Source: Amoebophrya sp. A120 (lineage: Eukaryota; Protista; Dinoflagellata). From it: a DNA stretch of 64,000 nt. This document shows positions 9,800-57,715 of this stretch, one piece after another; position 1 is the stretch's first letter; every line of letters starts with the position of its first letter. Under the pieces are notes generated by a model. That model saw only the letters and a program-made list of their open reading frames with translations. It ran no database searches and was not told the DNA's origin. Position numbers and translations under genes: made by a program. The stretch is from contig CAJINV010000008.1 in NCBI GenBank assembly GCA_905178155.1, forward strand, positions 3,167,303-3,231,302, in the 5' to 3' direction.

Positions 9800-9874
9800 T
9801 TATAGTTGGAGCGATTTATAGCCAGTGTGTTTGTTCCTGTTGCTCCTGCCCTAAATGTTGAGCGCCCGCTATTT

Positions 9875-14010: not shown

Positions 14011-14201
14011 TATTAAAAAAAAAACCTTCACAATCACTTATGCACATTTTTGCAATACAAAAAAACTTTTGTCATGCGCAAAAATGCATCACAGTCAAGA
14101 GTTATAGGCGATTTCCTTTTGTGTTTTTGCAATATAAGAAAAATTTGTCACGCGAGACAAATTTCTGATGCGAGATTGTGGCGGTATTTTTTTCCTGGAT
14201 A
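14011..14201. mobile_element. Introner-like element, degenerate, upstream of the assigned ECM29 ATG
   Basis: TATTAAAAAAAAAACC..ACAATC / GATTGT..GGTATTTTTTTCCTGGATA; DR gaaat/ggaat. The spliced frame is unresolved. Confidence 0.6.
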
Positions 14202-14338: not shown

Positions 14339-17300
14339 ATGGACCAATATGAGCGGGTGTTACTCCGCCTGGTGGGCACGGAGGACGAAGCTTTTTCTGG
14401 TGTATGCTACGTGTTGCTGCCGATGGTAATGAGAAAGCTTCTGGAGCCGCTCCCCGCAACAGACGCCACCCCCGGAGCGACGCAGAAGAAAGTGATCGAT
14501 ATTCTAAACCACGTGCTGCAGCGCGCAAAGGCCTGTCGGACGATTTTCCTGCCTTTTTTCGGAATATTGGACTTGATCACCACCGAGATGCGCGCGGAGC
14601 GCCAGGGTGTGCCAAGTGCAAACCCCACGGGCCGGCTCCTCTTCAAGAACCTCTCGATGATTTTCCTAGGCCTTGCGATCGAGCGGCTAGAGGAGCTAGC
14701 TAGCTCCAGCAATATCGAGGCAGAGGCAAGTAGATTGGAGCGCTCCAATTCTGGCCACGGTTTTCTGGCGGACCTGATCAAAATCAACAAGCTTCCTACC
14801 GCGGCAGCAACCTTTTTCAAGGCAACGCGGACCGCGAGGACCGTGGCGAGTGAGCTGATCAAAGAGTTTCACCTGTTCCCGCGTGCGCACCAGCCCCAGA
14901 TCTTCCTGGCAGTGCTCCACGCATTCGCCTGCTTCTACCCGACCAACGTGGCTAGTTTGGTCTTTGGACTGACAAACCAGGCAAAGTCGGCCCTGCTAGA
15001 GATCGACGTCGTGGCACAACATCAGCAAGAATTGACTGGGGGCGAAACGGTTTGCGTATGCAACGAAACAAATGCTTTAATAAATACAGTTACACACGAC
15101 TATGTTGCAGAAGTAGTCAGAGAGGCCAGCTCCGTCACGCGCAATGAGATGTACTACAGGACCCTATGCTGTTCATGCCTTTCATGTTGCATGTTATTTT
15201 CCCGTATGATCTATGAACTATGATCTCCGCACTACACCAGACCAAGACGCCGGGAACCGGGCGTCTGGGCCTGGATTACGCCCCCCTCGTCCAGGGGCGT
15301 GAGCCATCTACCACGCCATAGTACCATGCAGACCATACCTGTGATGTAGTAGTTGCTGAATCTGCAATATTCATTGTGCGTCGACTGTAGCACTTTTTTC
15401 CTCGGATAACCGGCCTCAAAACCATTCCACGCGACCTGCACCGAAGTAGAATCCCAGACCGCAGGGTTGCTCGCCTTTCTAACGACTGCCCGCGAGTTAT
15501 CCTGAGTAAAAACGTAGCCACACCATAGTCAAGATGGGGAATCGGCTAGACAAATCCACAAGTTTTGGCTGTTTTGCATGACAAATTTGGATTCGTAGTG
15601 TAGTGCTGGTTGAGCTAGCTCTGCAGCATCACAGATCTAGCATACCATGCTGATTGGAGCTGCATGACAAATTGCAAAACACGACTAGAAAACGCTTCTC
15701 ATGGGGCTCCGCATGAGAAACATTTTCAGCATGCAGATTTGCATTACAACTCTGGCATGGGTACGTTTTTACTCAGGATACGAGTTCTTCTTGATCCCGG
15801 GGAACGCTATTGAAACGAAGCCGCCGGCAATCGCAGGCATGTCGTCTATGAAATGCAAAGATGTTTCTTGGGTCTGGAAATTTGTGATGCTGAAGATTGG
15901 CTGTATCACGAGCACGTGGACACCTCCCTTTTTATCGCATAAGCGAGCCTGACACGGATTTGCGCTGCAAGATGTTGGCTGCTCCGCGTGGAAAGTAACT
16001 GTCGTGCCTCTGTATGACAGGAAGGGGCTTGGGCTTCTGGGCAACGTGGTGCATGTTCACACCAAGAGGGTTGAAGCAAAGTGATGGCGCCGCGCTCGCG
16101 GCAACGTGTTGGTGTTGTATGACAGAGTTCCAAGAGCACTACGCAGTCCAGTCCCGAACTACGACTACACATTTTCAATGCATAGGCTCTGCCTCGTGGC
16201 AAGTTTGGAAAACGAAAATCGAAAAACTTCCCCCCAAGGTGTCGTCCCTCGTTCACGCCAAGACGTTGTTCCTGCAGTTTTGGTATGCGTTGGAAATATG
16301 TCTGGTTTCGGAAGGAGGCAATCTTGTGATGCGGATTCTGATTCTCATGCTGGAAGTGGAACTACGAAGAAAACAAAATAATAAATCTTTGTTGCATACA
16401 TAGCCAGTTATAAAAATGCGCGATTTTTGTCTCCCGGGCGGGGAGACACCTCCGGTCTTGTCAGCACCAGGACCCAGACATATTTCTTGCACTCGATATT
16501 TGCGACTCCAGCATCACGGCGCTCCTGGATTTGCGAGCTGTTCTTCCGACCACGGGGGCCGATGTTGCGGACACCAGTGCGGCGTCTGTAGATCGTCCGG
16601 CGGTAGGCACGAGTCAAAGTAAAGCAGACGAGGTCCTCTACAGTGCTGCTGCCGCGTCTCGCGACGAACCAGTTGAGAACAAGAAAGCGGAACAAGCTGG
16701 TGAGGACAGGGGGACAGAAGTTCCCGTGCAGCAGCAGACAACCCAGAATAAACCAACCCTGCTTGCAGATGGTGACCGCACAGGTGCTCTCCTTGCCCCG
16801 TCGTTGAGAACTAGTACGGGCGGCCCCGAGCAAGATCGTGATCAGGATTCTTTTGTGATGCACAACGCTGGTGGTAAAAACGCTGCCGCAGGAGCGGTCC
16901 TCGTGGCACCAAGTGCAGTGAACATTATCGATGTGGTGCATCATATCGTGAGAAAAAAAGGTTTCACTCTCACTGTAAGTAAGAATTTGTTTTGTTATTG
17001 TTCTTTTTGCAACTTTTGCATTACTAGTTCTTGAAACATGGCAAATTAAACTACACATATGAAGACCCTATCAAGACAAATGCGTCTGGGTCTGTCTCTG
17101 TGTTGCATTCTATGCATCACAAGTAAGTTCACCGTAAAACAGTTTTTTCTTCCGATACACCAGTGCTACCTGTGTTACCTGCTAGGCACCCTCGAGCCGT
17201 ACGAGCAAGTGTCGACGAGGAGCGAGGCCTTGTGGAAGCGACTTGAGCACCGGATCGAGGGTGTCGAATGCAAATATGTCTGGGGCCGGAAAGTTGTAAT

Positions 17301-20300
17301 GCTGGGCTGTGAATAGTGGATGGGATGCTCGGTACTGCACCGCCAAGCAAGCATAATGAGAAATATTCGCGCGGCTTTGCGTTGCTTTTTCCGCATGACA
17401 AGCTCTTTCTAAACGACAAGGGGGGTTCGTCTTTCTAAATGACAAGCTCTTTCTAAATGACAAGCTCTTTCTAAATGAGGACGACCACAGGGGGTTCGTC
17501 TCAATGAAATGAAATGACAAGGAAGATGATGGTCTCTTCTTGGACACGCATCACAAACTCTTCGTTTTCATACAGTCATACGCGACGAGCATGACAAACC
17601 TACTTGCATCCTTCCAGACCCAGACAGTATTTGCACCTGATAGAGAGCCTGGGCGAGCAATCGGTCTCGAAACTGCTACTCCAGCTGATCCGCGTCACCT
17701 CTCCGCAAGCGAGCTCCCGACTCAAAGCCCGCGCGTTGCAGATTCTGCAGCAACGAATCTTGCAGCTGCACCTGGACACACCTTTGCACGTCCTGCTCGA
17801 CGTCGCACCCGCAACCGAAACAAGCGACGACCTGCACGCTCGGGTGCGGGGCCAGGTTGGAGTCCCGGGAGGAACTACGTCGGCGGCGCCCGCGCCCGAC
17901 TATAATGCTGCACCAGCGGAAGTACAACAACACGCAACTACAATTTCCGCCGTGCGGCAGCAGGGGGACGAGCCGCAACTGGCGCAACACGCGGCCATTG
18001 CCGCTACGAGAACCTTGGTCTTGCGTGACGCTGTGGTGGCTTTCGTCCTCGAGTCTCTCGGTAGCACCGTGGTCACGGTCCGGGAGGCCGCTCTGAGCAC
18101 CCTTCTCAACATTGCAGACGTCGTCTTCCCAAAGGCCGCTGCTACCGGGTCCCTTTCCTCGGACGAGGAGCAGTGGAGCGAAAGCTTCGCCGGGGACACT
18201 TCTGCCGTCGGCGTAGCGGGAGGGGACGGTGGATCGCAGTTGTTCCCAGGGCGACCACCAAAAGTCGAGGACGAGGATCATGAGGACCCGAGCAACAAGC
18301 GCGCATCGGAGCTGTTGCACCGCACACTCCTCGGCATCGAGCACACATACTTCCCGACGGCAATCGTCGACGCGAATCTTTCCACCGCGCTCCGGCTCGC
18401 CTTCCGCGCCTTCGGCCGTCTCACAAGGAAGCAAATCCGCAACAGCCAGGAGGCGTTGCGCGTAGCGCCGAAGCTGTTTGCTCTGCTGAACGCCAATCCG
18501 GACGCGAGCGAGGAGATACTCGAAGCGCTGAACGGAGTGCTGCTCTGGTTTGCGGAGTCCACGTATCAAAAGGAAAAATCCCCCCTCCCCATATCGAAAC
18601 GAAGTTTCTGATGCTGGATTTCCGTACACAAATCAGATTTGTCTTGCAGTAGAGGACTGCAAGCATATGCCCAGCCTCAGTCGAGAGGTTTTGACGTAGG
18701 CGCCTAGCATGGCAAACGTGTATGCTCTAAGCCCAACAACATCACAAACCGCCTGCAAAATGCGGAACGATTTCTGGACTTGCCTTCATTCTTGCAAGAC
18801 AGACAGGATTTGAGGTCACAAATGCGCATCACAAATTTTCAGACGGATCCGCTTTCGTTATGGGGAGGGGGGATTTTTCCTTACGATACCACGTCCATAA
18901 AGACGCGCGCGAAGGCGGAAGATCCACCGGAGCCGGTAGGACGCGGCGCCGAACATCAACTAGAGGGGGCCGCCCCCGCCTCCTCGGCCGCCCGGAGCGG
19001 GCACGACAGGATGGGTCGGCGTGCGGCTTTATCCGTCCTGCTCGACCCCCTGCTTTCCCAGAACCCGAAGCCGCTGATCCGGAAGGAGGCGCTGCGCTGG
19101 GTTCTCCACTTGTTCCCGCCGGAGTCAGCGGAGTACCGCTTTTACGCCATCTATGGGAGTGTCAGGATTGAAATCTACAAAGTTGAAATAGCTTGTAATG
19201 CATAAAATCGATACCAGTTGGAAGCCCAATTTCCAAGCAGCGCATGACAAATTTCGGCACCGTCTACATCCACTTTGTCATGCTGTTTAGGGACGACAGA
19301 AGGCGCCTTTTCCTTTTGTCATGCTACTTTAGCAGCTCTATCGCAGACCCCAAAGAAACAGGCTGACAGTCGGCCTCACTTACTTTCCATCCCTGCAAGA
19401 GAGGCACTCGCACTTCATGCCTTGCAATTTATGCATGAGGAATTATTTCAACTTTTTCGATTTCAATCCTGACACTTCCATACCGTCCAGCGATGCGGGG
19501 ACCAGGACCCCTCGGTCGCCAGCATGGCCGCGAAAGCCTGCGACGCCAGCCGCAAGTGTCCCACCGTGAACGAGATGATGCGTTTTCTTCGTGAGGGAAG
19601 CATTCTGCTGCCGTCAGAACTGGCCAAGAAGTGGCCCGAGGTGCCACAGATTCCCAAACTGGAGAAGGGAAGCCTCGTATGGCTTGCAAATAGGTCTGGG
19701 TCTTGAAAGTTGGAACTTCTGATGCTAACTTCGGACTCCAAAAAAATTTGTATTGTATGACCAGCAAGAGGAGTCTAGCTTGTGCTTCGCGGGGAGGGCA
19801 TTTGTCATGCGGAATATTAGGTATCTGGAAGCAATCAGAAGAGAGACAATCTGTGATGCTAGGGGATACATCACAGACGTCACGGGTCATGTAAAATCTG
19901 CATGACAAGTTGCAACCTTCCAGACCCAGACATATTTGCATTTGATACCGCGCCTTCCTCGTCGAATTCGTCGTCGCCCACTGCGTATGCCTTGCAAATA
20001 TCCCTGGAGGTCTGGAAAGAGGAAGGGTTTGTCATGCTTGTCTGGCATGACTGAAGAGATTGTCATGCGTGTGGTCCAAGAGGAGACCGCTCTTTTGCTT
20101 GTCATGCAATAAAACGCAGTTTTTCATGCGGAAAGCGCAAGATTACGTCGCGCAAATAAGTTGTGCTTATTTCTCATGCTTGGCTGTGCATTACGATTAC
20201 AGACGAGAATTCACTATTCACAACTCAACATTACATAGTTTTTAGTTTCCAGACATCCAGGGATATTTGCATTTGATACTGCGAGGCCGAGCCGTATCCA

Positions 20301-23300
20301 ACAGAAAAGCTGCAGCAGGCGCATAGTTGTACTAGAAAATGAAAATTCATCGTGCATGTGTGTTGCTGCTTTATTTCGCCTGTCAGCGCCAAAATTTTTG
20401 TAAAAATAGATGCTGGGCCGCTGCAAGGAAGACACCACAAGAATTTTCCATCGTCCGATAATAGCACATGCACAGTCAGATGTAGAATGATAATGAATGA
20501 ACGTGCTGTGGACCAGCATGACAAAGATGAAGATCGCTGCCCAAAAATAAAAAATGTGTCCTCTTTACCTTTGGGCATCGACCAGCCAGCAGTGGATTTC
20601 GTGTTGCGGCGCAAAAAGCAGAATGAATGACAATTTCACTTTTTCTCTGGTACTTATAGGCGTCACGTGCGTTTCTGTGCTATAAGCCTTCAACAACCAC
20701 GTTTGATATGGCTGCAGATGATGGAGTGCTGGGAGCAGCGAGACCTGTCGACGCCGCCGAGCAGGACGGAGAGAGCACCTCCTCGTGCAAAAGTGGAAGC
20801 AAGACCACACTGAAACGCCCCCGTGCGGACTCAGTCGTGAACACGGCCGACCACGTCGTTGCTGGAGCTCCTGCCCGCCCCGGCGCACTAGAAGGTGCCA
20901 CACAACTCGAAAGAGCTCCCGAAGCTGCAGGAATTGCAGGCGCTGATGCGCCACGGGCGGCCCGTCCTCAGCACCAAAAAAAGTCCGTGGTCTCCGTGCA
21001 GGATGCCAAAGTGCTGCTTTCCCTGGCCGATGCCTCGAGCTCGTTGAAAGCCTATCGGCTCCTCTGGGAGTTGGCGCAACACGACTTGCATCGGGAATTC
21101 GCTGAACGTGTGGAATTCTTCGCAAACAAGGCTTTCCTCTCCGACAACGCGCTGGACTGGGCCCACTTTCTACAGGATATCCTAGACAAGTACGATTCAC
21201 CTGCTCCTGTCGAGGTTTCTGCTCAAGTCGGTCCTCCTGCTCGCGCTGCAGTCGAACCTGAGCTGCAGCTCTTCGGAACCGACCAGCTAGAAGCGGCGCA
21301 GGAGCTCGCTGCTAAGCGGAAGACGCTGTTAGCAGAACTGTATGGCCGCTACTACGGACGAGACGAACTACTAAAAACGCCGAGCTATGCATTGCAAATA
21401 TCGATCTGGCTCTGCAACGATAGTACTAGACTTGTCATGCTGACCTCCTCCCATGCTCCCGCGAATCCTCCATGCTGCGCTCCTCCCATCCTCTGTCATC
21501 CGCATCGCGAAGTAGCAGTGCTCCTTTGTAGTGATGTAAAAACGCAATTTGTCGTGCGCGTTGCATATTCCTCGCTCAAAAATTTGTGATGCTTGGCTGC
21601 GTACTGCGGTCAGTTTCTTTCGGATTCGCGACATGGTAGCAAGACAGCTTTCAAGAAGACCCAGGTATTATATTTGCATTCGATACGAGCGGTCTGTCAG
21701 CTACAACTTCGCGCGCCGCCGCGGCTCCAGCGCCCTCCTCCGACGATTTCCTGGGCGACACCGTGCTCCTTCTCCTGGCTGTCCTCTATCATGAGGGAAA
21801 TAATGCCTCCTCCCTTCTATGTGGAAAACGTACAAAAAGCGTGATTTGTGTTCCCTGTTCGTGTGCTCACGCAAATCCAAATGTTATGTTGTCCTCTGTC
21901 TTGCATAAAATTCGGCAAGGAAGGCCTGCTGGACAGGCAATCATCTGTAAAAATGCGGTTAAGCCTACAGAACAGTAGGAAGGTCTACCGTTCTGAAGAA
22001 GTGCTAGACCACATCTAGAAAGAACCTAACGAGGCTTGGAATGCGTCTACTATATTTTCCCTTGATGCAAGAGATGGTGCAAGAATTTGTGTACAGGCAT
22101 AGATGATGCAGCATCAGAAATTCCCGTTTGGGGAAGGGGGGATTTTCATCTGAACATCCTCGTGGTTCCCGTTTCAGGAAGCCAAGCCACGGTGACGGAG
22201 CGCGACACTGTGCCCACGGGCCAGAAGATTTTGGACAAGCTTGCGGCCTCGAGCCTTGACTCAACCCGGAAGCTCGAGGCGTATGAAAGCCTCAGGTTGG
22301 AAATTCTCAAAGTGAAAATAAATTTGTAATGCAAAAAAACGACTCCAGTTGAAGCACCATTTCTAGTCGGCGCATGACAAATTTTCCTGGCACTCAAGTC
22401 TTCGTGTCTGTCATGCTAGTTAGGCAAAGGTGTGCCGTTCTCTCGTGCTAATCTATCAGCAGCCCAATTCTACTGAACCCGTAGAAGCACAGTAGTCGGC
22501 CTCCGTAGTTGCGTTCTCTGCAATACAGTCTTTTTGGTGTCGCATTTTATGCAATTACATACAAATTATTTTCACTCTGAGAATTTCCATTCTGAGGCTC
22601 TCATAAGGCGGCCACCGTACTGGTAAGGAAACTCGGCAGGGACACAGTGCTCCAGGCCCTGTCGAAGAAGATGATAGACCCAATCCCGGCCTCATCTACG
22701 AGTAGTGGCGCGGCAGGGTCGACTATGAAAGTGCACAAGAATTCCCCCTCCCCCTCATTTGTCATGCAAAACCCCAAATACAGGCTGTGCCTCTTGGCAC
22801 TGTTTGCATGACAAGTTCTGGTAGCCCAAACAGCACTAGACTCTAGCGTACATTTGTCATGCAAAACCGGCATTCGTCTTGCGCTTGCCCGATGCTTGTA
22901 TTGCCGTTCATGCTATACAAATGATGGGCAGGGGGAGTTGTGCATTGTCATATCGACGAGGACGACCAAGAGTGTGATTCCGGACGACAAGCTGGCCATC
23001 GGTCTATCGAGAGGAAAAATCCCCCCTCCCCATATCAAAACGAAATTTCTGATGCTGGATTTGGATACACAAATCAGATTTGTGTTGCACAAAGGCATGG
23101 CGGCCAGATCCGCAGGCTAGCTGAGGGCGTATGGGTCTAGTTGCTCAGCATGGCAAACGGCCTCCCTTTAGGCCCAACGGCATGACAAATCGCCTCCATA
23201 ATGTGGCGGAAGCTTCTGCCCTTGTCTTCTTGCAAGACAGATGTGATTTGTGACCTCAAATCAGCAACACAAGGCATACCTTTTCAATATGGGGAGGGAG

Positions 23301-26300
23301 AATCTTTCCTCTCAATACGGTCCGGCAGGGAGCTTCCGCGACGCCTTCGCCTTCGGTGCTGTGCGCTTCCTCGCTGTCTGTGGCGACGTGGAGCGGGTTA
23401 TGACAGTGCACAACTCCCCCTCTTCGTCCCCCTCATTTGTCATGCAAAATATCCAATTCACCCTTTGCCTCTTGGCCCTGTTTGCATGACAAATTCTGGT
23501 ACTAGCCCAAATAGCACTATACAACTCCAGTGCAAGTTTGTCATGCAAAACCAGCATCCTTGCTGGTGCTTGTATTGTCGTTCATGCGATACAAATGAGG
23601 GGGAGGGGGAGTTGAGAACTGTTATACGGGTGCTGGAGATTAGCCAGCGCGACCATTGGCGCGACCGCGACGACGCGGTCTGCGTCGTCGCCCTTGCGCT
23701 CGTGCTGGATGCGGGGCTGGACATCTCGACAATTTTGTCGCACATGGGCGAGGGCGAGGCAGGTGATAATATACTTCCAAAGGGCCAACAAGAACCTCCT
23801 CCGCATCAACAGAGCGGCACTACAGCAGCTGACAGTACAACTTCTACAGCACCTACAACAACGTCTGGCACGAATGATAAAATCACGACATCGGACATCC
23901 ATCAAAAGGGGGTCTCTGTAGTGCCCCTGAGGCATGGCGTCGTCTGGCTTCTGTGCCGGCTGAAGCACGAGCAAGAGAAGTTGCATGGCTCCTTTTTCTC
24001 TACTAGTGCCTCACGTCAGACTTCCGCCTCTACTCCAGATCCCGGCTTGTTAAACGAGGCCACCGTGGAACTGCTGGCCCGCATTTTCGTCCGGGGTCTG
24101 CACCTGCCCGTCGCGAACCTGTTTGTGGCGGATGCGGCAGCGAAAGGCCTTGTCCGGCTATTCGCACTCACGTTCAAGAACGACACGACAAATCAGGCTC
24201 GTCCTGGACGACGTGCTGCTGCTGCCAGCAGTACTACTTGCCTCACAAAAACTTCCGCTTCCCCACCTGTCGAGCCAGGTGGTGAACTCGAAGGAGATGC
24301 AGGGACTGGCCCTGCTGCTCCTGCGGGCAGCACCTCGCTGGTTGTCAAAACCATTTTCGCCTCCGTGCAGCAGCGGACACACAACGAGAGCGCCCTGGTC
24401 GCCAAGGAGGAGGACTCCGTGCTTGCGAAATCCAAAGACAGTGCCGTTCTCGCGGCGCGGGAAAGGCAGAATGAACTGAAGGAGATGCTGTTTCTCTGCC
24501 GGCAGCTGGGAAACTTGAACTTCATCATTGCGTGCTTGGACCAGCCCACGGGCAGCTCCGTCGCGCTCGCGAGCATGGCCGCGATGCATGAGGACGCTGC
24601 GAGTTCACGGCTCGCGGAGGTCGCCAAGAAGCTCATGAACCCGAATAGCACTTTATCAAATGTAAAAATGTCTGGGTCTGGAAGAATGCGCGATTTGTCA
24701 TGCAGCTTTTCCATGACCCATGAGGTCTGGAATGCAGGACCTAGCATGACAGATTCTGTGCGATCTTTCTCATGCCTATCCTGCATGAGAAACTACCTCC
24801 CGACTTGGTCAAAATTGGGCGACTTTTGGCAATCATGCAACACAGATTTTTGCATGCTGCAGATTTAGCATGACAAGTTGCAATCTTCCAGACCCAGACA
24901 TTTTTACAGTTGATACACTTCCGCTATGAGCAACGGCTCGAGTTCCACCGGTCCGCAGCTCGCCGGCGTATTGACAACCCTGAACGCGCTGATGAGCATG
25001 TCCGAGAAGGACCAGCAGCGCCTGGCGGACCTGATGGATCCGCAGAAGCGCAAGGAGGCGGAGGAAAAGCAAGAAGCGGAGAAGCGCGCCCGCGTGGCCC
25101 AGGAGGCCAGCGTGAGCCAGCTCAAGAAGCAGCAACAGACGGCGTCGGTGGCCGGGTCGGGGTTCTTCGACGCGCTGACCATCCAGGCCGCCGACGTACG
25201 GTCCCTGGCGCTCCCGGCGCACCTTCGCGCGGCGGTAGCCGAGAAAAGGCTGGTGCTGCACCAGTTTCCGCCGTACTTCTTCCACAGTAACGGAAAGCTC
25301 CGGGAAGTCATCGTTTCGATATCATACGTAAAAACGACCCCACCCCGTAGTCAAGCTGGGAACTCTGCCAGTACATAAACGACCCCAAACACGCCGTACT
25401 TTAGTCAAGTTGGGAACTTAGCAACACAAACCCAGAAGCTTTCGGAGCAACGCATGACAAATTCCAGTCCGTAGTGTAGTGCAGTTTAGCAAGAGCAGCC
25501 GCACGACAAATCCATCTGCTCATCCCGTTTACAGCATCACAAATTCCAAAACGCAATTGGAAATGCCTCTCAACATGGAGATGCGCATTACAAGAGATGC
25601 GCATTACAAATCTTCCTGTGGTCGCAAATCTGCATGACAACTATGGGGTGGGAGAGTCTTTACTCAGGATATTCGATCTCCCTGAACTACTTCGGGATCG
25701 AGCGCGTGCAGGACATCGGTCCCTGGCCCATATGCACTGCAAATATGTCTGGGTCTGGAAACTTGTGATGCTGAGTTGCGTACCATGAGCATCATGAGGA
25801 GGCCACAACTCTTGATGGCTCAGCATGAAAAGTTTCTGAGCTTCTACTTCTAGGTACTATTGCCTACTCTGCATGACAAACTTCTGCGTTTCTGCATCAC
25901 ACAAAAATGGCGGCTTTAGGTAAAAGCGTGCGTGACAGACTCGAGAGTTATCTTGCTAGCCGAGCAAGACAAGTAGTCCCGCATTCTTCCAAAACGCCAG
26001 ACAGATTTGCACTGGATAGCTCAAGGTGTACCGCAACCTTGTGCGGATCGGGTTGAGCCCATCGGTGTCTCGCGTGAGTTTACGGGAAGCCAGCTGCCGG
26101 TGCCTGACGCAATTGCTACGGTCGGGCAGACGCTGGAGGGAGCTGGAACCCGAGTGGCAGGCCCTTTGGGAGGCGGTGATCCAAGTCACCGACGACCTCG
26201 AACCGAAAATCGAGGCCGTCGCCGGCCCACTATCACGCACTCTGCGATCCCTGACCATCCGTCTCTGCAACAGCTCCGGCCAACTGGCGTCGCAGCGCTT

Positions 26301-29300
26301 TGACGCCCCGCCGGGGTATTACACTAAAAAGTCCCCCCCCGATCCCGGAAGCGGGAAAAAATAATGTTTGTGTATACATAACAAGATTTTTAAATGCGAA
26401 ACTCTTTCGGTCTTTTCCTCTGAGCTACGAGTAGTCTTTCTACTGCAGGAGAACCTTCTATGCGTATAATTTCACAAGGATCGCTTGCATGACAAGTGCC
26501 GCGCTTGCTGGGCCTGGAGTCTTTTGCAGTACAAATTTTTGCTATTCACCATTGAAAATCTGCGACGCTGATACATGAAAGAGGGCGAGCGTTCCCATAA
26601 TTGGGAACTGGAACAAGCTTTGCCATACAAAAACAAACGCTTCCACGTTCTGGGGTCGTGGCGGCACTTATTTTCCATATTTATACGAGGAACCAGCTAT
26701 TTTCTCAGGGCGCAGCGAACGCCACCAGTAGTACTGGCGTTGCGGCGAGTGGTTCTTCCTCCGGAGCACCTGCAGCGCACCACCAGCGCCAACAGTACAT
26801 TGGCTCCGCGGAAGTGCAGGCGGCTCTGTCGAAAACACTCCCCATGCTGCTGCAGTTCCTGCACCTGTACCCGCACGCCCGGTCCCTGTGCTTCGATGTG
26901 ATCCACGAGGTCGCGCAACTCACGGCCAACGCGTCGTTGTTGAAGCCCTTTCTGCTGGAGCTGGTGCCGCTTCTTCTGGAATCACTGAACGCACTGGAGC
27001 ACCGCAAGGTCGCGGAGTACCAATGGGACTTCAACCGGGCAGGCGCCGGCGAGAAATACGAACAAGCCCGCATCGCGGCGTCCAAAGACTCACCCAGCTT
27101 CCGGCTGCTGCGGCGCCTGGTGCCCAGTTTCGACCGGCCCGCCCTGTTGGAGCTGTCCGGGACGCTGCGGAAGTTAATGCGGCAGGGGGTGGGCTCCAAC
27201 ACGAGGTGCGGGGTCTGCGATTTCTACTCCATGCTGGCCGCGGAGATGTACCGTGAGGAAAAATCCCCCCTCCCCATATTGAAAACGTATGCTCCTAAAA
27301 ATTTGTGATGCTGATTTGTGGCCACAAATCCTGTCTCTCTTGCAAGGAGGCAAATCCAAAGAATTCGCAGCCTTAGGGAGGCGATTTGTGATGCTGTTTC
27401 ACGTACATGGCAGGCCTCTGTCATGCTCAGCGCCTAAGTACAACAAAACACCCCTACGCAGGCTGCGGCTTTGCTTGTAGTGCCTCACTGCAAGACAGGG
27501 CTGATTTGTGTACACAAATCCAGCAACAGAGGTTTCCGCTTCAATATGGAAAGGGGGGATTTTTCACTTTGATAAGATGCCGCATGTGTTCTCGCAGCCG
27601 ATCGCGTTGCAGACTTTGCGGGCCATTGCGAGCTCGCTGGTGGACGAAAGCATCGCGGTCAAGTCCGCAGCAGCGTTATTGTGACGAAAAATCCCCCGCC
27701 CACCCCATGTCGAAAAGTAGAATAAGTTTTGTGATGCTAGATTTGCATACACAACTCGGACTGTATTGCTAGAAGAAGGCCAAGAGACGCAGCTGCGGCC
27801 TCGTTTGCGCACCATTTCTCTACTCGATGTGTCCCTCTACTTCCAGTTGCTTCCTGTCATGCTGAAGGCGCAAGGCTTTGGCTTTGTTTCCCACGCCGGC
27901 CAGCACTCCAGTCCACATGTCTCTTCCGTTCTAGCTGGCATGACGACGTGACTTGCGATTTTTGCAAATCGTGCTACACCAGTCCTCCTCTGAGTATGGG
28001 ATGAAGGAGGGACTTTTCGTTGCAATACGCGTCCGCGTTTGCGAGTATCGCCAAACGGGTCGACGACAAGACGAGCCTGGCAGAAATCATCGAGAAAAAG
28101 TATCAGAATGAAAAATGCCCCCACCCCCGAACTTGAAAGCATTTGTATTGCAAACCTTTCCAAATGAAACATTCGCCCTCTTGCACCTATCAGCATCACA
28201 GGTTTCCAATCGTGAATAGCGAAAATTTGTATTGCAAAAGACCCCAGCAAGAGCGGCGCTTGTCATGCAAGCGATGCGATACACGCCTAGACTCTGCATC
28301 AGAAAGATTCATACTCCTTTCATGCATGACAAAAAGGTTTCATTTGGAAACTTCGCATCACAAATTTTTGCAATTTGAGGGGTGGGGGGCACTTTTCACT
28401 GTAATAAAAAGCTGCTGCCCGGAGCAGCAGACTTTAATGATGATGTTGAAGACGTGAATGTGGACGACGCGGCGCGAGGAGTAGGACTACCAACGCTATC
28501 AAGTGCAAAAATGTCTGGGTCTGGAAGAATACAAACTTGTGATGCGCATTCCAGAACACAGGAAAATCTCTCATGCATAGGCAGCAAAAGTTGCCCACTT
28601 TCTGTCACCAAAATGCGACTTGTCATGCGGATTCGGCATTGCGGACGCTTCTCGAATCCTGTGATGCTAGAGCTTCCATGCCAGACCTTCTGCGTCATGC
28701 AAAAACAGCATGACTCTTCCAGACCGAGACACTTTTGCATTTTATAAACGCCCAAAAAAGGCCAAGCGGAGCCTGCTGTTGAAGTGGAGCCGGGGACGAA
28801 ACAGGTGTCGACAGTTCTCCGCCTAGACGAGGGCGGCCGAGCAGGAGAGAACCCGAAAGAGGTCCGCGGTGAAGTAGAAGTAGATGTCGCAATGTCACTG
28901 GACCAACGCGGGCCGGGCAGTGGTATGATGGGAACAAAAAATCCTCCCCATATTGAAAAGCCTTACTTACTTCTGAAAATTTGTGATGCTATGGCTAATT
29001 TCTGGCCACAGACCGTGCCTGTCTTGCAAAGGGGCAATTCCAGAGAGTCCGCCTCAGTACGCCGGCGGTTTAGAATTATGCAGTCGCGCCCATAGGGCAG
29101 GCCCCTGCTATAATGCAGCTATGGGCCTACGCGACTAAAACACCCCTTCGCAGCCTTAGCTTCTACCTGCGGTCGTGCCATACTGCACACAAATGATCCA
29201 GCAGCAGAAAGCCGCGCTTCAATATGGGACATCAGCGGGGGGATGATTTTTCATTTTGATAAGTGAGCACCGATCTTTGCTAAAGACCTCGGCATCCGAC

Positions 29301-32300
29301 CTCGGGTTTCTCACCACCTCGTATCCTGATGAAAAACGTCCCCACACCAGAGTCAAGATGGGAAACCTGCTAGACAGATCAGCCAGCCTTGGTTGTCTGG
29401 CATGACAAGTTTCTTGTCCTCGTCGTGTAGTCCTGTTTAGCTAGTTCAGAAGCATCACAGATCTAACATGGCATGCTGATTATAGCATCACAAATTCAAA
29501 AACACGAATAGAAAACGTTTCAAATAGGGCTCCGCATGAGAAACTTTTTTGGCGTGCAGAATTGCATGACAGCTCTGGGGTGGGGACGTTTTTACTCAGA
29601 ATACCTCGGCAAAGGCTTTGTCCGAGATCCACCTATCAACTGCAAATATGTCTGGGTCTGGAAAGTTGTGATGCTGTCTGGCCAATCATGTGGACGTCTG
29701 CATTGACAGCCAAGCATGACAAGTTTTGGAGTTGCTATAGTCTTGTCTATCTGCATGACAAGCTGCGTTTCTGCATGACAGAGAAGTGTGGCTTTTGGGT
29801 GGCGCGCATGACAGACTTGATAGCCATGCCAGACTAGCACGACAAATCTCGCAATCCCCCAGACCCAGACACTTTTACTTTTGATACCACCGCCGAGGGT
29901 GCGATTTGCGTTCGCTCCAATTGCGCGACCGCCTGTGCAGCCAGTGCTTTTTTCACCAGTTCCACGCGGTGGACCGGGTCAAGCAAGAATGGACCGCATT
30001 GTGGCTGGAACTGGGCTTTTCTGTCCGGCAAGCCCTTACTCTCGAGCCCGTCGTCACCGTTTTAGCCCGCGCGCTGCAATCGCAGGACCGCGCAACGCGG
30101 ATGCAGGCCTGTCGCGCCGCGGTACAACTCTCGCAAGACCTTCTCGCAGGTCGTACCACCACTGGTTCAGGAGACGAGGACGCGAATAAGGACCTGCAGC
30201 GGCTGGCAGCGGCGCTGGCGAAATACGAGAGACATGCAACCCCCCCCTCGGTCGTCATGGTCATCGTCGCCTTTAATATTATTGGTAAATTATTTTTTCG
30301 CATGCAAAGATGCAATTCCAGGGCAGTACTACCTAGCCTTCTAACTAGCTGCGTCGTCTTGCATAGCACTACAGGCCGTACCTGGATCTATTTTTGTCAT
30401 GCAAACGCTACAATTCTATCCTTGTCGCGATTGCCGCGCATCACGTCCTGCAAAGGGAAGGGGAGTTGTGCACTGTGATACGAAAAGTGTGGAAACCTAC
30501 AAGCTCGCGTACGTCGGGGCAAGTGTGGTATTGCGCGCCCTGGTCACGCTGCTGATGCACCTAAATGTAGGAACAAATATGACATTCACCGGCGCAAGAA
30601 GCGCAGATGAAGCGGCGGGCGACAAGGACCACGAAGTGGGAGGTGAGGACTCAACGTTTCTTGCAAAAACCGCTTCTTCCCCTGGTGCTCTTGGCACGCG
30701 GCAGGTGCAGGCCTGCGTGGAGATGGTGAGGTCGACGCGCGTGGAGGATACCGATCGCGCGGAAGCGCTGTGCATTCTGACCGACATGGTCGCGAAACTG
30801 GGGCGCGGCATCGCACGGGAGATTCCCGTGGCCGATCTGTACAGGTGGATCGAAACCAAGCTGGACCAGAAAGAGTATGGTGTTCTCAAACGTTACATTC
30901 TCAACTGTAACATGAATCTGTAATGCAAGAATGGCAAAAGCCAAAGGGGGAAGATTGCAAAACTTGCATTACAAATGCCACGCTGATTTAGGTGGTGTTT
31001 AGCCCTTCGCAAATTTGTCATGCGAAGCAGCTTGATCTTGTTGATGATGATGGTAGTTTTGCATCACAAACTCACGTAACAGTTGAGAATGTAACGTTTG
31101 AGAACTCCATAAAGAAGTCGAGCTCCGCCAGGAAGCAGAGAAGGACTTTGCCTTCGTGGCGAAAGTTCGTGGACGCGGCCCGGCCGAGAAGCTGCTTTCG
31201 CCGGTTTTCGATCTCTGGGCCGCGGTCCTGGACGGCCAAGACGTATCAAATGTAAAAATGTCTGGGTCTGGAAGAATCTAAACTTGTGACGCTGTCTCTT
31301 GATTCGAAAAGGATTTGTATTGCATGACCAGTAAGAGGAGTAGATTTTGTGCTCCGCGGAGAGGGCATTTGTCATGCGGAATGGGCATCAAGAATCCCTC
31401 CAAAGCCCTGTGATGCTAGGGCATGCATTACAGGCATAATGGGTCATGAGAAATATGCATGACAAATCGCGCACTCTTCCAGACCAAGACATTTTTACAT
31501 TTGATAAGACGGGGGAGGTGACGATTCTTATACGGTTGCACGACCACCAGGAGTTGCATTTTTATGCATTCTTGAAAATGTCGATCTCAATCTGGAAAGA
31601 TGCACACTTGTCTTCATGCGCATTTCTGATTTTTGCGAAGAAAATCTCTTCAATGCATAAACAGCACAATAAGGTACTACCCAAATATTGGCACTTCATT
31701 CTATCGAGCAAAGAGAAGATTACATGTTCTCTCGCTGCAAAAAATTGATGTTCTCAAAGCCTGTGAAGATGCCAGTAGGGCTCCTGCATACCACGTGACC
31801 TTCAGCGTCGTGCGAAATGAGCACCCGACCTCGACCAAGAAAAGCTGCACTATTCTTCCAGAGCCAGACACGACATTTGCATTTGATCAGTACCGGCACC
31901 ACGACCTGCCGGGGGGACCACGGGGCCGCCTGCCGCAAGGACGACGCAGCAACTGCTCGGCCGCTATCTCCAAGCGTGGCTTCGCGAATACGCACACGCC
32001 ACCGGGACTCTGCGCGTGGCGATGCTGCGCGCGCTGCGGCGTATCCTGCTCAAGCATTTCTCAACAGTCCGCGTCGGGGGCGGAGTAGATGTTCATACAA
32101 CTGGTGCCAACGTGGACCACAACGCCGCAGCTGCCACTGCCCGTTTTTTCGAAAGCGATTTTTACGGCGAAATGGTTCCAAGCAGTGGAGCAGGACAAGG
32201 CATCATGACCACGCCGTCGAGTGGAACAAGAACGACCGGCAGAGACCTGCTTCTCCAAGTTGCAAAGATCGCCCTCAACACCGTCAACGAAGATTGGTCG

Positions 32301-32789
32301 AGAATCCGACGCGCGGGCCTGATCCTGCTCGCCGCCTTCGTTCGAGTAGACGTAGACCAGTTGTTGCGGACCTGTGTGCAGTTGGAAGAGTTGGAAGCGT
32401 TCTTGCTCACGCTCGAGCACGCTGAGACAAACAACCTGGACGAGGCGCTTCACGAGGATCTTGAAGAAAGACAGGCACTGCAAACTTTGAACGCGTTCAG
32501 AAATATGCATTGCAAATATCGATCTGGGTCCGGAACGAAGAGTGCAGGTTTGATTTGGCATGCTTGTCTCACATGACAGTTGGATCTGTCATGCGTGAGC
32601 ACGCAAAAAGCCTCTTGCCTGTCATGCAAAAGTGCAGTTTTTGCCAAACAGAAAGCGAAACACAAAGATGCCCAGAAACTCTTCGGGCGTGGCTGCGTAT
32701 CGCGATAGGGTCAGCATTCACGGACTAGCAGCCCAATTTTCCAGATACAGACATATTTGCAATTAATAAGAAATGAACTTCGCGGATAA
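14339..32789 (+). CDS. ECM29: Proteasome adaptor/scaffold ECM29 (HEAT repeats). 34 exons split by 33 non-canonical inverted-repeat introns, ~2801 aa. An extra 5' exon from ATG 13959 is possible.
   Basis: MDQYERVLLRL...KKVIDILNHVLQR and LREASCRCLTQLL...LWEAVIQVTDDLEPKI...LTIRLC resemble ECM29. Removing each element plus 5 nt leaves 8406 nt (2802 codons), in frame at every junction and ending at TAA 32787-32789. Confidence 0.85.
15057..15408. mobile_element. IR introner (old, family F-like)
   Basis: TIR matches at 15 of 20 positions. DR is decayed (ttgcg/accgg). Removal plus 5 nt restores the frame. Confidence 0.65.
15498..15780. mobile_element. IR introner family C
   Basis: Perfect 19-bp TIR TATCCTGAGTAAAAACGTA; DR cgagt/cgagt. 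Confidence 0.92.
15847..16184. mobile_element. IR introner family A (degenerate)
   Basis: TATG...CATA ends with GGGTCTGGAA; DR tcgtc/ggctc; frame restored. Confidence 0.7.
16284..16498. mobile_element. IR introner family A
   Basis: AAATATGTCTGG / CCAGACATATTT; DR tttgg/tttgc. Confidence 0.85.
16944..17157. mobile_element. IR introner family F
   Basis: TATCG..AGAAAAAA / TTTTTTCT..CGATA; DR catca/cacca. Confidence 0.85.
17262..17642. mobile_element. IR introner family A, with an internal 18-bp tandem duplication
   Basis: TGCAAATATGTCTGGG / CCCAGACAGTATTTGCA; DR gaggg/gagag. Confidence 0.85.
18564..18888. mobile_element. IR introner family B
   Basis: ~30-bp TIR with AAGGAAAAATCCCCCCTCCCCATA; DR ccacg/ccacg. 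Confidence 0.93.
19152..19482. mobile_element. IR introner family D
   Basis: TIR TATGGRAGTGTCAGGATTGAAATC; DR ccatc/ccgtc. Confidence 0.92.
19678..19947. mobile_element. IR introner family A
   Basis: TGCAAATA.GTCTGGGTCT TIR; DR cctcg/ccgcg. Confidence 0.9.
19986..20278. mobile_element. IR introner family A variant
   Basis: TGCAAATATCCCTGGA.GTCTGGAAA TIR; DR ctgcg/ctgcg. Confidence 0.92.
20295..20684. mobile_element. IR introner (degenerate)
   Basis: TATCCAACAGAAA / TTTCTGTGCTATA; DR agccg/agcct; frame restored. Confidence 0.75.
21386..21685. mobile_element. IR introner family A
   Basis: TGCAAATAT / ATATTTGCA; DR cgagc/cgagc. Confidence 0.9.
21787..22156. mobile_element. IR introner family B (degenerate, right end ACA)
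   Basis: C-rich/G-rich TIR remnants; DR tcctc/tcctc. Confidence 0.82.
22282..22605. mobile_element. IR introner family D
   Basis: ~40-bp imperfect TIR; DR aggcg/aggcg. Confidence 0.92.
22724..22952. mobile_element. IR introner family E
   Basis: TATGA..GTGCACAA..TCCCCCT TIR; DR tcgac/tcgac. Confidence 0.92.
23005..23317. mobile_element. IR introner family B
   Basis: TATYGAGAGGAAA...CCCTCCCCATAT TIR; DR cggtc/cggtc. Confidence 0.93.
23399..23626. mobile_element. IR introner family E, close relative of 22724-22952
   Basis: TATRACAGT...CAACTCCCCCTC TIR; DR cgggt/cgggt. Confidence 0.92.
24654..24915. mobile_element. IR introner family A
   Basis: 32-bp TIR TATCAAMTGTAAAAATGTCTGGGTCTGGAAGA; DR cactt/cactt. 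Confidence 0.95.
25320..25671. mobile_element. IR introner family C
   Basis: GTAAA..CCCACCCC TIR; DR ttcga/ttcga. Confidence 0.9.
25731..26018. mobile_element. IR introner family A
   Basis: TGCAAAT.TGTCTGG TIR; DR gccca/gctca. Confidence 0.88.
26317..26685. mobile_element. IR introner family G (degenerate)
   Basis: TAT...ATA ends; interior similar to 28101-28406 in reverse; DR cgggg/cgagg. Confidence 0.8.
27249..27574. mobile_element. IR introner family B, inverted relative to 23005-23317
   Basis: GAAAAATCCCCCCT TIR; DR agatg/agatg. Confidence 0.92.
27677..28027. mobile_element. IR introner family B variant
   Basis: TATTG..ACGAAAA.TCCC TIR; DR agcgt/cgcgt. Confidence 0.88.
28101..28406. 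mobile_element. IR introner family G
   Basis: TGAAAA.TGCCCCCACCCC TIR; DR aaaag/aaaag. Confidence 0.92.
28497..28746. mobile_element. IR introner family A
   Basis: TGCAAAA.TGTCT.GGTCTGGAAGA TIR; DR aacgc/aacgc. Confidence 0.92.
28924..29261. mobile_element. IR introner family B (degenerate)
   Basis: AAAAATC.TCCCC TIR; DR agtgg/agtga. Confidence 0.85.
29322..29603. mobile_element. IR introner family C
   Basis: AAAAACGTCCCCAC TIR; DR cctcg/cctcg. Confidence 0.93.
29634..29886. mobile_element. IR introner family A
   Basis: TATCAA...TGTCTGGGTCTGG TIR; DR ccacc/ccacc. Confidence 0.92.
30224..30480. mobile_element. IR introner family E (degenerate)
   Basis: Right end GGGGAGTTGTGCACTGTGATA; DR cgaaa/cgaaa. 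Confidence 0.85.
30876..31111. mobile_element. IR introner family H
   Basis: 33-bp TIR TATGGWGTTCTCAAACGTTACATTCTCAACTGT; DR aagag/aagaa. Confidence 0.93.
31244..31506. mobile_element. IR introner family A
   Basis: TATCAAATGTAAAAATGTCT.GGTCTGGAAGA TIR; DR agacg/agacg. Confidence 0.95.
31563..31888. mobile_element. IR introner family A (old, DR lost)
   Basis: AAATGTCG...TCTGGAA / TTCCAGA...CGACATTT. Removal plus 5 nt restores the frame. Confidence 0.7.
32504..32768. mobile_element. IR introner family A, last ECM29 intron
   Basis: ATTGCAAATAT TIR; DR agaaa/agaaa; the join reads ...FRNELRG*. Confidence 0.9.
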
Positions 32790-33049
32790 GATCAACATCC
32801 AACTAAATGAAACGAAGGCCAGCTCCAAAAGAAGAAGAACGCCCTTAGCACTTCACTTTCCCAAAAAATAAATGCACGACAAAACAGAGATCTGACGGCT
32901 CCACTCCTTTTTTTTTCAGACTGAGTAATATTACCAGCCGGACAACTATAACCACAGAGTCAACGCCTTGGCATCAATTGTGATGAATGTCGCGAAGAGT
33001 CATGATTGACATCGTTGCTGCTGCAACGAACAGCGGAGGAATTTGAGTC

Positions 33050-40413: not shown

Positions 40414-42002
40414 TCATGAGTACAACTTACCTTCACGCTTTGCCACCTCATGTGGTCGTCCGGGCCCACCACCAGCGAGGGGCGGACAGGACACACGCAG
40501 GTTCAGGGGCGAAACTTCTTCCGCGCTGTGCGGAAACAGCAGGGACGAAGCAGGAGCTCCTCCACCCGAAAGATTCCCAACAACCGCGTCGTGCGATGAA
40601 CTACCGTAGGCGTGGCTTGATATTACCCCGGTATCGAAACTGTAGAACTGCGATGATGAACTATTGTCGGCGTGGTAGTTCGTGTACATCTTCCAGGCGA
40701 GAATACTGCCGCAGAAGAAGGCGGCGGGGCAGAGCAGGTACAGTATCGCAAGAAAAAAACTGTGTAAGTGTAAATTTGTGTTGCAGAAAGTGCAAAACTG
40801 TTAGACTTGTCATGCTGGACATGCATCAGAGGCAATTTTCGTGCGTGTCTTCACGTGCTAGCTACGTCTGACAGGTTTTCTGTGTCATGCAAAGCAAACT
40901 TGTGATGCTATTCCCTCAAGAAACTTACACTTACACAGTTTTTTTCCTGGATATACAGCGACCCGAAAATATTTTCGGCCAGCGACCGGTCGGGCCCGAA
41001 GAAAGTGCGCGCTGCAGGCCTCCTTGCGTGGCTCATCAGAACGGATATCTGCATCACCCTGTTGTAAAAAGGCAAGTGGTGCATCATCACGGTGTTTCCA
41101 TGCAAAAATTCAATTCCTTTTATTCAATTCCTTTTGCGGTGCACGAGCACGGATTAAGGGTTCATCAGCGCGAAAGGCTGGCTCATCGATAGAAGCTGAC
41201 TCAATGAACTCTAGCGTGCGAAAAATTCTTGGATGGCCCGAAAAATGGCTGGGTGTATTGGAAGATGTACGGGTGAAGGTGGCTACGAACGAGAAAAGCG
41301 GCTACAAGAAAAGCAACTACATGATCATACATCCTCTAGATTGATATTGCAATAGGACTGTAGCACGTCACTATACTTGAGCGTCTCGATGATCCCCAGA
41401 TAGAATCCGAAGAGGTATCCTGTGTAAAAACGTCCCCACACCATAGTTGTCACGCAACTCTGCATGCTTAAAATGTTTCTCATGCGGAGCCCCATGAAGA
41501 GCATTTTCTAATGCGGTTTGGAAATCTGTAATGCGCCAATCAGCATGAGATACTAGATCTGTAATGCTGCTTAGCTAGCTCAGACAGCACTACACTACGT
41601 GTCCAAATTTGTCATGCGAAACAGCCAAAGCTTATCGATTTGTCTAGCGGATTTCCCATCTTGACTCTGGTGTGGGGACATTTTTACTCAGGATAAGAGG
41701 CCCCAATACATGATGAACTGCAGCTCCAGATGGTTGTAAAGACTTAGCCAGCCCAGCAGCGCTCCCAGTAGACAGAAAAAAGCGCCAAGCACGTCGGAGG
41801 ATTCCCGGGAGGCAGCAGCTGCGCCGCTCGTCGTACCGCTGCTCGACCCCAGCAGCCCAAAATCGTGAATGCGGGTCAGCGAGGAGAGCGTCTGGGCCCC
41901 CAGCAGGAACACCATCAACCCCTTCCGGCGCAACACGTAGTCTGACGGCGGTCCCTCGCTCTCGCCCGCCAGCGCGTGCGACAGCGTCGCAGGCAGCACC
42001 AT
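40414..42002 (-). CDS. Multi-pass membrane protein of unknown function; two IR introners and one probable GT-AG intron (41049-41330)
   Basis: Hydrophobic segments join in frame after removal: ...IMYWGLFGFYLGII... and ...IFGSLYLLCPAAFFCGSILAWKMY. Confidence 0.65.
40744..40953. mobile_element. IR introner family F
   Basis: GAAAAAAACTGTGTAAGTGTAA TIR; DR tacag/tacag. Confidence 0.93.
41416..41695. mobile_element. IR introner family C
   Basis: TATCCTG.GTAAAAA.GTCCCCACACCA TIR; DR agagg/agagg. Confidence 0.94.
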
Positions 42003-56300: not shown

Positions 56301-57715
56301 CACGTCTATGACCTGCTCAGGTGTTAGAATCTCAAGCGTTACAATAGAATCTGGAATTTGTCTTGCATGATCAACTTGACAGACTCGGACAGCATTCCAC
56401 TTTCTGCAATACAAATTTCGGCAGATTGTAGTGCGGATTGGGACTCCAGAACTTGTCATGCGCAATCCTGTGGGAATAGGGTAGATCATGCACCTCTTGC
56501 AACACAGATTCCAGATTCTATTGTAACGCTTGAGATTGTAACGTTTGAGCAGGTCATAACGTCGGTCATGATCTCCTGGATCAGGTCCGGTTGCGCGTTT
56601 TTTGGAAACAGTTCCAGCGTGTGCATTGCAAAAGTATCGTACTAGTATAAATTGCAATACTCCTTAGCATGAGAAATGCAAATGGAATCTGTCATGCGGA
56701 TTTGCTTAATAAAAAGATTTGTAACGCAAGACTTGCATTCATACGAGTACGATGCTTTTGCAGAAGATACAGCGGCAGCTCCAGCCACTGAACCACCAGT
56801 TCGATAAAAACCGTGGGGCTCCCGCGGGCCCGCTCGATCTTTTCCAACAAAGAGTCACAGGCGCGTCGGCGCTCCTTCTTGTTCTTTTTGATGTACGCCA
56901 GGCGCTTCTGCACCAGCTTGCTGTGCTGGTTCAGCCAATCCGAGTCCTCCATTTCTTCGAAGATCATCTTGCCCAGCCCCAAGCGCTTCCCCTTCCCCCC
57001 GTCCCACCTCCGGGGCATCGCGTACCGCCTGGCCTGGCTGGGCTCCCAAAAAATCACGGACTTATCCTTCTCGAGGGTGGCAACCCAGCTGTGCTCCACG
57101 ATTTTGCCCTCCTCTGTCATGAGCTGTCCCTTGCAAACCCAGGCTGATAGGGAAATGTATTAACGTTTTTTTTTTTTGGGTGGATTCTCCTGTCTTCTTG
57201 ACGCTACTCATTTCTTCAAAATTCAGTAACTTGTTCCATCGATGTTCATCATAGCAGCTGAAGCACCTACTTTTTCTTGTCCGTCGTGATGCAAGAGAGA
57301 ACTACTTAGTCACAACGTAGGCAGGACTTGCAGGTCAACCTCAGCCACTCGGGCACCGGAAACCAAAAGGGACGAGAGACTCTTACTCATCTTTTATGTT
57401 ATCATAGATTGATACCGTTTTTCTTGCAGCCGAGAAGGATACAACACAGCAGCACCGCGTGGTCTTGGGCGGGGCCCTTGCGCTGCGCGAGTATGAAGGA
57501 CGCGTTCTTCATACTGTCGTCGGGCATCAAGCCGGTCCGCTCCTGCTTCGATGCGTAGTAGTAGGGTAGGCAATTTATCCAGTGCAGCAGGGTAGCGGGG
57601 CGGCAGAGCTCCTGGGGGATAATGATCGGGCAGAGGAACGCGGGGATCGGTATGGTGCCCCGGGTTTGAGGATGTATCGCCGTGCAGGGAAAGCGCCGGC
57701 ACCCACCCTCCGGGT
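53320..57715 (-). CDS. 3' part of a CEP76/CC2D2A-like (transglutaminase-fold) centrosome/cilium protein; 8 IR introners plus one GT-AG intron (57144-57415); 5' part lies beyond the Copia element
   Basis: GPAQDHAVLLCCILLG, HSWVAT..IFWEPS, LPYVTLEVMFNTTNVYAN and C-terminal VQCRVVPLLGGILSVWFVLG. All joins are in frame to the stop at 53320. Confidence 0.75.
53448..53756. mobile_element. IR introner family D
   Basis: TATGGA.G.GTCAGAATCGAAAT TIR; DR gtcta/gtcta. Confidence 0.93.
53815..54066. mobile_element. IR introner family A
   Basis: GTAAAAATGTCTGGGTCTGG TIR; DR cgata/cgata. Confidence 0.93.
54247..54597. mobile_element. IR introner family G (degenerate)
   Basis: GAAAA..AAGTGCCCC TIR; DR gtgct/gtacc; frame restored. 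Confidence 0.8.
54657..54963. mobile_element. IR introner family G
   Basis: TATTAC..TGAAA.ATGCCCCCACCCC TIR; DR cgtca/cgtca. Confidence 0.93.
55543..55862. mobile_element. IR introner family B variant
   Basis: GAAAA(A)TCCC TIR; DR gcggt/gcggt. Confidence 0.9.
55932..56185. mobile_element. IR introner family A
   Basis: TATCAARTGTAA...TGTCTGGGTCTGGAAG TIR; DR cgtcc/cgtcc. Confidence 0.94.
56307..56558. mobile_element. IR introner family H
   Basis: TATGACCTGCTCA...AATCTCAAGCGTTACAAT TIR; DR acgtc/acgtc. Confidence 0.93.
56620..56769. mobile_element. Short (150 bp) IR introner
   Basis: TGCAAAAG.ATCGTACT TIR; DR cagcg/cagcg. Confidence 0.88.

Follow-up and report, generated by a model that had tools for sequence, protein, structure and literature searches.

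In the 64,000-nucleotide stretch of Amoebophrya sp. A120 DNA analysed here (the window), the 9-bp motif GCAT(G/C)ACAA recurs inside introner families that differ in their TIRs. It is probably a double-stranded DNA site to which one mobilising protein (a transposase or its accessory factor) would bind, in several copies set at fixed distances, and splicing likely does not need it. Binding by such a mobiliser is predicted from sequence, with evolutionary constraint as its proxy.

Elements were sought de novo by their TAT...ATA ends and flanking 5-bp repeats, followed by manual completion through reading-frame checks; this gave 44 TAT...ATA elements of 150-390 bp with TIRs and 5-bp TSDs in the 64-kb window. 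The TSD matched in 5/5 positions in 28 elements, in 4/5 in 12 and in at most 3/5 in four. TIRs, TSD, small size and the lack of a transposase ORF inside the elements are MITE features, and the anatomy (TAT start, seven variable nucleotides, at least three A, direct repeat at the exon/intron border) is that of the published Amoebophrya A120 introners. The ends TAT-N7-AAA and the 5-bp TSD are common to all families, which repeat across the genome, window copies being up to 96.8% identical to those in another assembly. The window elements are non-autonomous, DNA-transposon-like introners that are excised exactly from RNA.

The ECM29 proteasome-adaptor gene (14339..32790, plus strand), with a Pfam ECM29_N and HEAT_ECM29 match in two exons, contains 33 predicted introns, all TAT...ATA-type elements, for which 13 joints were seen; deleting every element plus 5 nt leaves 2801 codons with zero stops. 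Upstream of its start, an element with six PWM sites was found (14011..14201), while the region downstream (33000-36000) is AT-rich (GC 0.42) and devoid of long ORFs or elements. A putative minus-strand gene (53330..57122), with a weak CEP76 peptidase-like match below the cut-off, has eight elements whose removal would restore the frame; for one of them, 54319-54597, the left end is one of three choices that do so. Further elements are located at 40744..40953 (five PWM sites) and at 41416..41695, the latter belonging to the 15498/25320/29322 family and probably lying inside a minus-strand gene. Micro-exons are present between adjoining introners, one of 11 nt at 20283-20293, predicted from the frame, and one of 25 nt at 29608-29632, supported by RNA.

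The focal introner (29634..29886) is a 253-bp non-autonomous TIR element with TAT...ATA ends, flanked on the plus strand by CCACC as 5-bp TSD at 29629..29633 and 29887..29891. Its left TIR of 28 nt (29634..29661, plus strand) is 82% complementary to the right TIR (29859..29886, minus strand), and the two arms pair in the predicted RNA fold (z -3.93). Motif sites on the plus strand were confirmed at 29714..29722 and 29753..29761 (both GCATGACAA) and at 29773..29781 and 29806..29814 (both GCATGACAG), the site at 29773 opening a 33+31 bp triplet. A fifth start listed in the earlier note, 29837, turned out to be the variant GCACGACAA (29837..29845, plus strand), with inward polarity at position 42 from the right end, and a minus-strand site of inward polarity at position 33 from the left end (29666..29674) was absent from that list. 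The joint 29628>29887 skips 258 nt, i.e., 253+5, in 4/4 runs of one sample; taken singly, it is ambiguous in position because the TSD duplicates its border. The excised intron would be 29633..29890 (plus strand), beginning one nucleotide ahead of TAT and ending four nucleotides past ATA, in the sole register compatible with all 13 joints. The sister copy (53815..54066) has the same plus-strand orientation and, lying in the minus-strand gene, is opposite in the transcript; the restored frame suggests that it is an intron. Its site gaps are 39, 20, 33 and 31, the first having previously been given as 38. The variant GCATGGCAA occupies the first of its sites. Since it is a homologous copy, the matching gaps are not independent evidence.

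The strict motif has 74 matches in the window versus 1.63 ± 1.12 expected (100 dinucleotide shuffles, largest value 5). The 44 elements contain 71 of these sites (5.6/kb), whereas one is found in exons (10.0 kb from two genes), none in the LTR element and two elsewhere; the intervals 1-13000, 33000-40300, 44000-52900 and 57200-64000 are free of strict sites. Counted by element, the motif is the top 8- and 9-mer, with GCATGACA present in 35/44 elements, the exact 9-mer in 38/44, GCAT[GCT]ACA in 40/44 and a PWM site in 42/44. Written as a consensus, the PWM reads GCA(T/a)(G/c/t)A(C/g)A(A/g)(A/g), and its flanks are rich in pyrimidines. All nine TIR types distinguishable by eye, a grouping separate from the A-H labels used before, carry the motif. 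The observation of the earlier note, one motif shared by all TIR families and seemingly rare in exons, is confirmed. Isolated sites were seen at 13301, at 39648 and at 42968-43310, the last within a probable decayed element with unfixed ends. A 279-bp element at 39722-40000, with long perfect inverted arms of a different type and zero motif sites, constitutes a natural negative control. The LTR retrotransposon (58400-64000) encodes a Copia-type reverse transcriptase (RVT_2), has its gag-pol split over two ORFs and contains no exact motif.

Polarity of the outermost sites is defined. Among strict sites at most 62 nt from an element end in the window, 38/39 read TTGTSATGC inward, and they are mostly located 32-36 or 40-44 bp from that end. 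The proposed left and right forms of the motif are thus borne out as inward polarity, except that the sites lie just inside the ~28-bp TIR and not within it. Spacing is likewise restricted: the window has 41 same-polarity pairs at 30-33 bp versus a null mean of 8.3, with 21 pairs in the best 4-bp window of any of 1000 nulls. Offsets of +/-31 and 32 (same polarity) and of +16, -17, +34 and -48 (opposite polarity) each have frequencies of 7-14% versus a median of 0.6%, and opposite-polarity spacing recurs at +16, -16/-17, +34 and -48. An initial family-level test on seven groups was not significant (p 0.94) because chaining had merged families. A replacement test, chosen after that null result and based on one-element-per-group resampling over 16 hand-adjusted groups in the window, gave a 30-33 bp excess with p<0.05 in 75% of 40 draws; such a pair is present in 7/13 window groups having two same-polarity sites. 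Tandem arrays with a 31-33 bp unit are absent from the elements. The sequences flanking paired sites do resemble one another to some degree (0.37 vs 0.22, n=18), and the 32-bp step may therefore owe something to old duplication. A period of 10.3-10.5 bp is strong in pooled copies (best 10.3 bp). With one element per family, the general period is borderline (median p ~0.05, p<0.05 in about half of the draws), and the lengths of the elements show no phasing (R 0.09 at 10.4). Of the near-helical spacing claimed earlier, the three-turn step of 31-33 bp holds, while a general ~10.5-bp period is borderline after de-duplication. The spacing is a discrete grammar more than a general helical period.

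A second set of elements was obtained by scanning metagenome contigs with a TIR-plus-motif pattern (family-A pattern), which yielded at least 155 loci (L007-L161), all from assembly JACKZZ01. A motif-blind finder applied to these loci gave at least 336 distinct elements, with two false positives per 317 kb of shuffled DNA. Many of the elements are query-selected, their families largely overlap those of the window and they are not an independent lineage; the queried outer sites were scored apart. Among the matches listed, the exact 9-mer is present in 284/336 elements and a PWM site in 335/336, and 777 sites fall in 114 kb of element-homologous DNA (6.8/kb) versus 53 in 320 kb far away (0.17/kb). 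The 31-33 bp peak recurs in these 336 elements; with one element per cluster, a median of 13 pairs at 30-33 bp compares with 6.6 in the best null window (p<0.05 in 25/25 draws), and the cluster-weighted best same-polarity period is 7.1, not 10.4, again among the matches listed. The logo of the 336 elements listed has A at 0.87-0.93 at positions 11-13, its TAT being a search criterion, and their TSD composition is flat, implying no strong target preference. One locus contains a 1104-bp element (L031 505-1608) with matching TAT TIRs, a 5-bp TSD and five motif sites in its left 220 bp; the interior is unrelated, repeat-rich and without a long ORF, and the element is possibly a deletion derivative of a larger one.

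Conservation of the motif depends on where in an element's history it is measured. In the window, motif density is lower the more the TIRs and TSD have degenerated (rho 0.57, p 6e-5, n=44), the mean number of strict sites being 2.86 in the 28 elements with a perfect TSD versus 0.25 in the four with a TSD of at most 3/5. In JACKZZ01, event counts from 13 subfamilies of at least five copies (176/336 elements, among the matches listed) gave core/interior change rates of 0.21-0.28 on inner branches and 0.52-0.67 at tips (Fisher p ~5e-5). In six subfamilies of at least eight copies among the matches listed, private core changes occur at 0.79 of the interior rate; the cell-count p-values of that analysis overstate independence, and event counts are preferred. 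After context control, 105 private core changes were observed versus 160 expected (ratio 0.66, p 2e-6; JACKZZ01, among the matches listed), a deficit that counts against a role in mobility alone. Older insertions with a TSD of 4/5 have an equal excess of changes in core (+1.07 points, 20 events) and interior (+1.05 points), again among the JACKZZ01 matches listed. Over these analyses, private core changes lie 21-48% below the interior rate. The motif likely behaves as a DNA-level mobility signal. Tip rates are still below 1, and a helper role after insertion is therefore a possibility. The tip deficit may reflect unsampled master lineages or real post-insertion selection; in a small sample of a large family the tips include unsampled transposing lineages, which would give the observed mixture of inner and tip rates.

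Excision was followed in contigs from four runs of one sample, which were classed as RNA by guess and cannot show levels. All 13 joints (12 in 26200-32000, one near 24650) omit the element length plus 5 nt. The raw-read RNA run X9, with 12 partial reads on the window, was uninformative for splicing. Most joints are blurred by the TSD; four imperfect TSDs narrow the cut, and a decayed element (31563..31888, joint 31561>31893) pins the register. Only cutting one nucleotide upstream of TAT and four nucleotides downstream of ATA (-1/+4) is compatible with all joints (24654-31888). Under this register, T is at +2 in every intron, as it is in the nine commonest A120 splice classes (PMC7789003, Table S4), an agreement that lends weak support because aligners may favour T at +2. 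Selection for G at intron +1 was rejected, with G in 19/43 at +1 and equally in 19/43 at the mirror position, and TSD mismatches in the second assembly (7 vs 7, among the matches listed) speak against this preference as well. No AG preference was found at the intron 3' end (3/43). Within the terminal ATA, the first A lies 7 nt from the 3' cut; it is invariant in 43/43 genic elements, partly as a search criterion, and could be a branch point. The GT..AG intron at 26317-26685 is a decayed TAT...ATA element in the same register, and therefore some 'canonical' introns are introners.

A splicing signal would be expected in every spliced intron and in a single transcript polarity; the motif shows neither. 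In the window, its transcript polarity is even (56 vs 50 strict sites, 99 vs 89 PWM sites), and same-family copies in opposite orientations are spliced within one gene (24654 vs 31244, 28497 vs 29634, 26317 vs 28101). The element at 25320..25671, with seven plus and no minus sites, is excised exactly by contig arithmetic (4+54+292 = 350 nt), which covers excision of element 25731 likewise. Exact excision was also found for 28497..28746, with no plus and four minus sites, and, in 4/4 runs of one sample, for 31563..31888, which has zero motif sites (best PWM score 3.0) and is the one motif-less element checked in RNA (n=1). Even polarity together with exact removal of these three kinds of element makes a signal that is needed in the RNA difficult to uphold. 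Pairing of the ends in the predicted RNA fold (z -3.93) would suit a splice rule based on the ends. Interior contig cover of 31563-31888 was seen in 2/4 runs (X5 and X6), with a loose end at 31646 that continues outside the window; retention or alternative processing is possible, and the cover may reflect poorer splicing, which is confounded with decayed TIRs. The earlier proposal that the motif defines these sequences as removable is not supported, and the refuting condition given in the earlier note applies in part: the motif-less and single-polarity elements are removed exactly and density fades with age. The refutation is incomplete, given the deficit of private core changes and the unspliced cover of the motif-less intron.

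Orientation independence and DNA-type spacing would also fit a host or domesticated-transposon DNA-binding protein that reads the lattice in chromatin and helps to load the splicing machinery co-transcriptionally, redundant copies making single losses nearly neutral. Such a reader is compatible with the significant tip constraint (0.66, ranging over 0.52-0.79 across analyses, among the matches listed), with the unspliced cover of the motif-less intron and with U1 snRNA being undetected in A120 according to the text of PMC7789003. Against it, constraint is 2-3 times stronger on inner branches and the change excess of older insertions is equal in core and interior (both among the matches listed), the motif fades with age, and 31563-31888 is exactly spliced without a site. 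We consider this explanation unlikely, yet worth keeping in mind. If the motif instead acted at the RNA level, either bound by a splicing factor or lengthening the terminal hairpin where inverted copies pair, this would agree with the paired ends of the predicted fold, with the complementarity of left and right outer sites and with at least one TTGTSATGC-sense site in 12/13 directly seen introns. However, polarity is unbiased, with 25320 and 28497 both excised exactly, direct repeats 31-33 nt apart cannot pair together, outer sites are often offset (33 vs 42) and the best pooled period is 10.3, not 11; an action in RNA is highly unlikely.

Common ends and TSDs in all families make common descent likely, and together with the resemblance of paired-site flanks this would suit a motif without function, left over from a single ancestral element and multiplied by duplication within it. 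The inner-branch rate, however, is about a quarter of the interior rate (among the matches listed), so that the constraint test largely refutes a relic, and the spacing is kept across seemingly unrelated spacers without tandem arrays, leaving this origin a very slim chance. The pooled 10.3-bp period and an ORF for a C5 cytosine DNA methylase in the second assembly (L028 378-1877) could be taken to indicate a base-modification target, or a nucleosome or DVNP positioning signal, that silences or packs the elements. We regard this as next to negligible in probability, given that replicating lineages of the element would not preserve a mark that silences them and that strict 9-mers at discrete offsets, rather than a dinucleotide wave, make up the signal.

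A shared binding site for one trans-acting protein, as suggested in the earlier note, is supported by the fixed polarity at both ends, the discrete spacing and the constraint; among the proteins named there, the transposase fits best. In the mobilisation reading that we prefer, a dimeric or multimeric protein would bind sites in inverted pairs with a step of 16-17 bp and in direct pairs with a step of 31-33 bp (three helical turns), its anchor lying 33 or about 42 bp inward of each TAT end. The assembled complex would cut at TAT...ATA and insert with a 5-bp stagger. Use of the same protein by all families would keep the motif while TIRs and interiors diverge. After insertion, the sites would decay, and splicing would rely on the ends, that is, on a terminal RNA hairpin with cuts in the -1/+4 register. 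We think it quite unlikely that, beyond this, the A120 families form one superfamily in which a single integrase-like transposase wraps the whole element (150-390 bp) on 9-bp sites arranged as a 16/32-bp lattice, and the same or a domesticated protein marks the DNA so that the U1-less spliceosome cuts at -1/+4; if true, one protein would couple intron creation to intron removal.

Farhat et al. 2021 found no transposase in A120, according to the text of PMC7789003. An integrase-like enzyme would be the best lead for the mobiliser and A120 family 38 its best candidate: the text of PMC12130899 reports a 5-bp TSD and TA/TA termini, as in the window elements, and LTR-type homology. Among the JACKZZ01 matches listed, 0/73 long ORFs in the loci belong to transposase or integrase families, and three elements longer than 520 bp contain no ORF over 238 aa. 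No autonomous element with the same ends was found in the window or, among the matches listed, in 0.58 Mb of loci. Viral contigs gave 0 matches to two TIR-based patterns. Six matches to a motif-triplet pattern were rejected as short tandem repeats unrelated to introners.

The TSD of hAT elements is 8 bp, compared with 5 bp in the window elements. In Hermes, BED domains bind subterminal AAG(T/C) repeats, and Tol2, Tag1 and Ac have end requirements (text of PMC10368747). These hAT subterminal repeats, as described there, are short sites that recur inside the TIRs in either orientation, asymmetric between ends, and by sequence the window motif would qualify in the same sense, with repeated sites of defined polarity inside the ends. 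In contrast to hAT, the window 9-mer runs through the whole element at 16/32-bp steps and is common to families with different TIRs. Ginger elements have TGTNR ends and mostly 4-bp, sequence-biased TSDs, while TDD-4/5 make 5-bp TSDs as seen here (text of PMC2836005). The window ends are TAT[CG] and TSD composition is flat; membership in Ginger was rejected on the termini. MITE-derived introns of Fritillaria and euglenids are likewise TIR+TSD elements excised from RNA with non-canonical ends, but they have other termini and no internal motif lattice in the text of PMC11282704. The A120 introners themselves have been described in PMC7789003 with inverted repeats of TAT, seven variable nucleotides and at least three A, 5-bp direct repeats, non-canonical splice ends and introns of ~240 nt. 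The window elements agree in repeats and ends; that text, figures aside, names neither a shared internal motif nor a spacing, describes the position of the intron border as unknown and states that general mobilisation by a transposase is ruled out. In the literature searched, including the text of PMC7789003, PMC12130899, PMC11282704 and PMC12005148 (figures aside), the motif, its grammar and the fixed register were not found; a literal-motif text search gave, among the matches listed, papers all unrelated by title, and PMC12166617 does not mention Amoebophrya. The elements are already known, and the motif is a real, apparently unreported variant of transposase-type subterminal repeats.

Movement and splicing of the A120 introners are stated open questions, the describing paper having given neither a transposase nor a fixed splice position. 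That the elements share a strict 9-mer and its spacing grammar argues for a single trans-acting, DNA-binding mobiliser behind the nearly 2,000 reported families. The motif is a bait for finding that protein and a signature for autonomous copies, and the -1/+4 register is a testable rule for U1-less splicing and for the annotation of introner-bearing genes.
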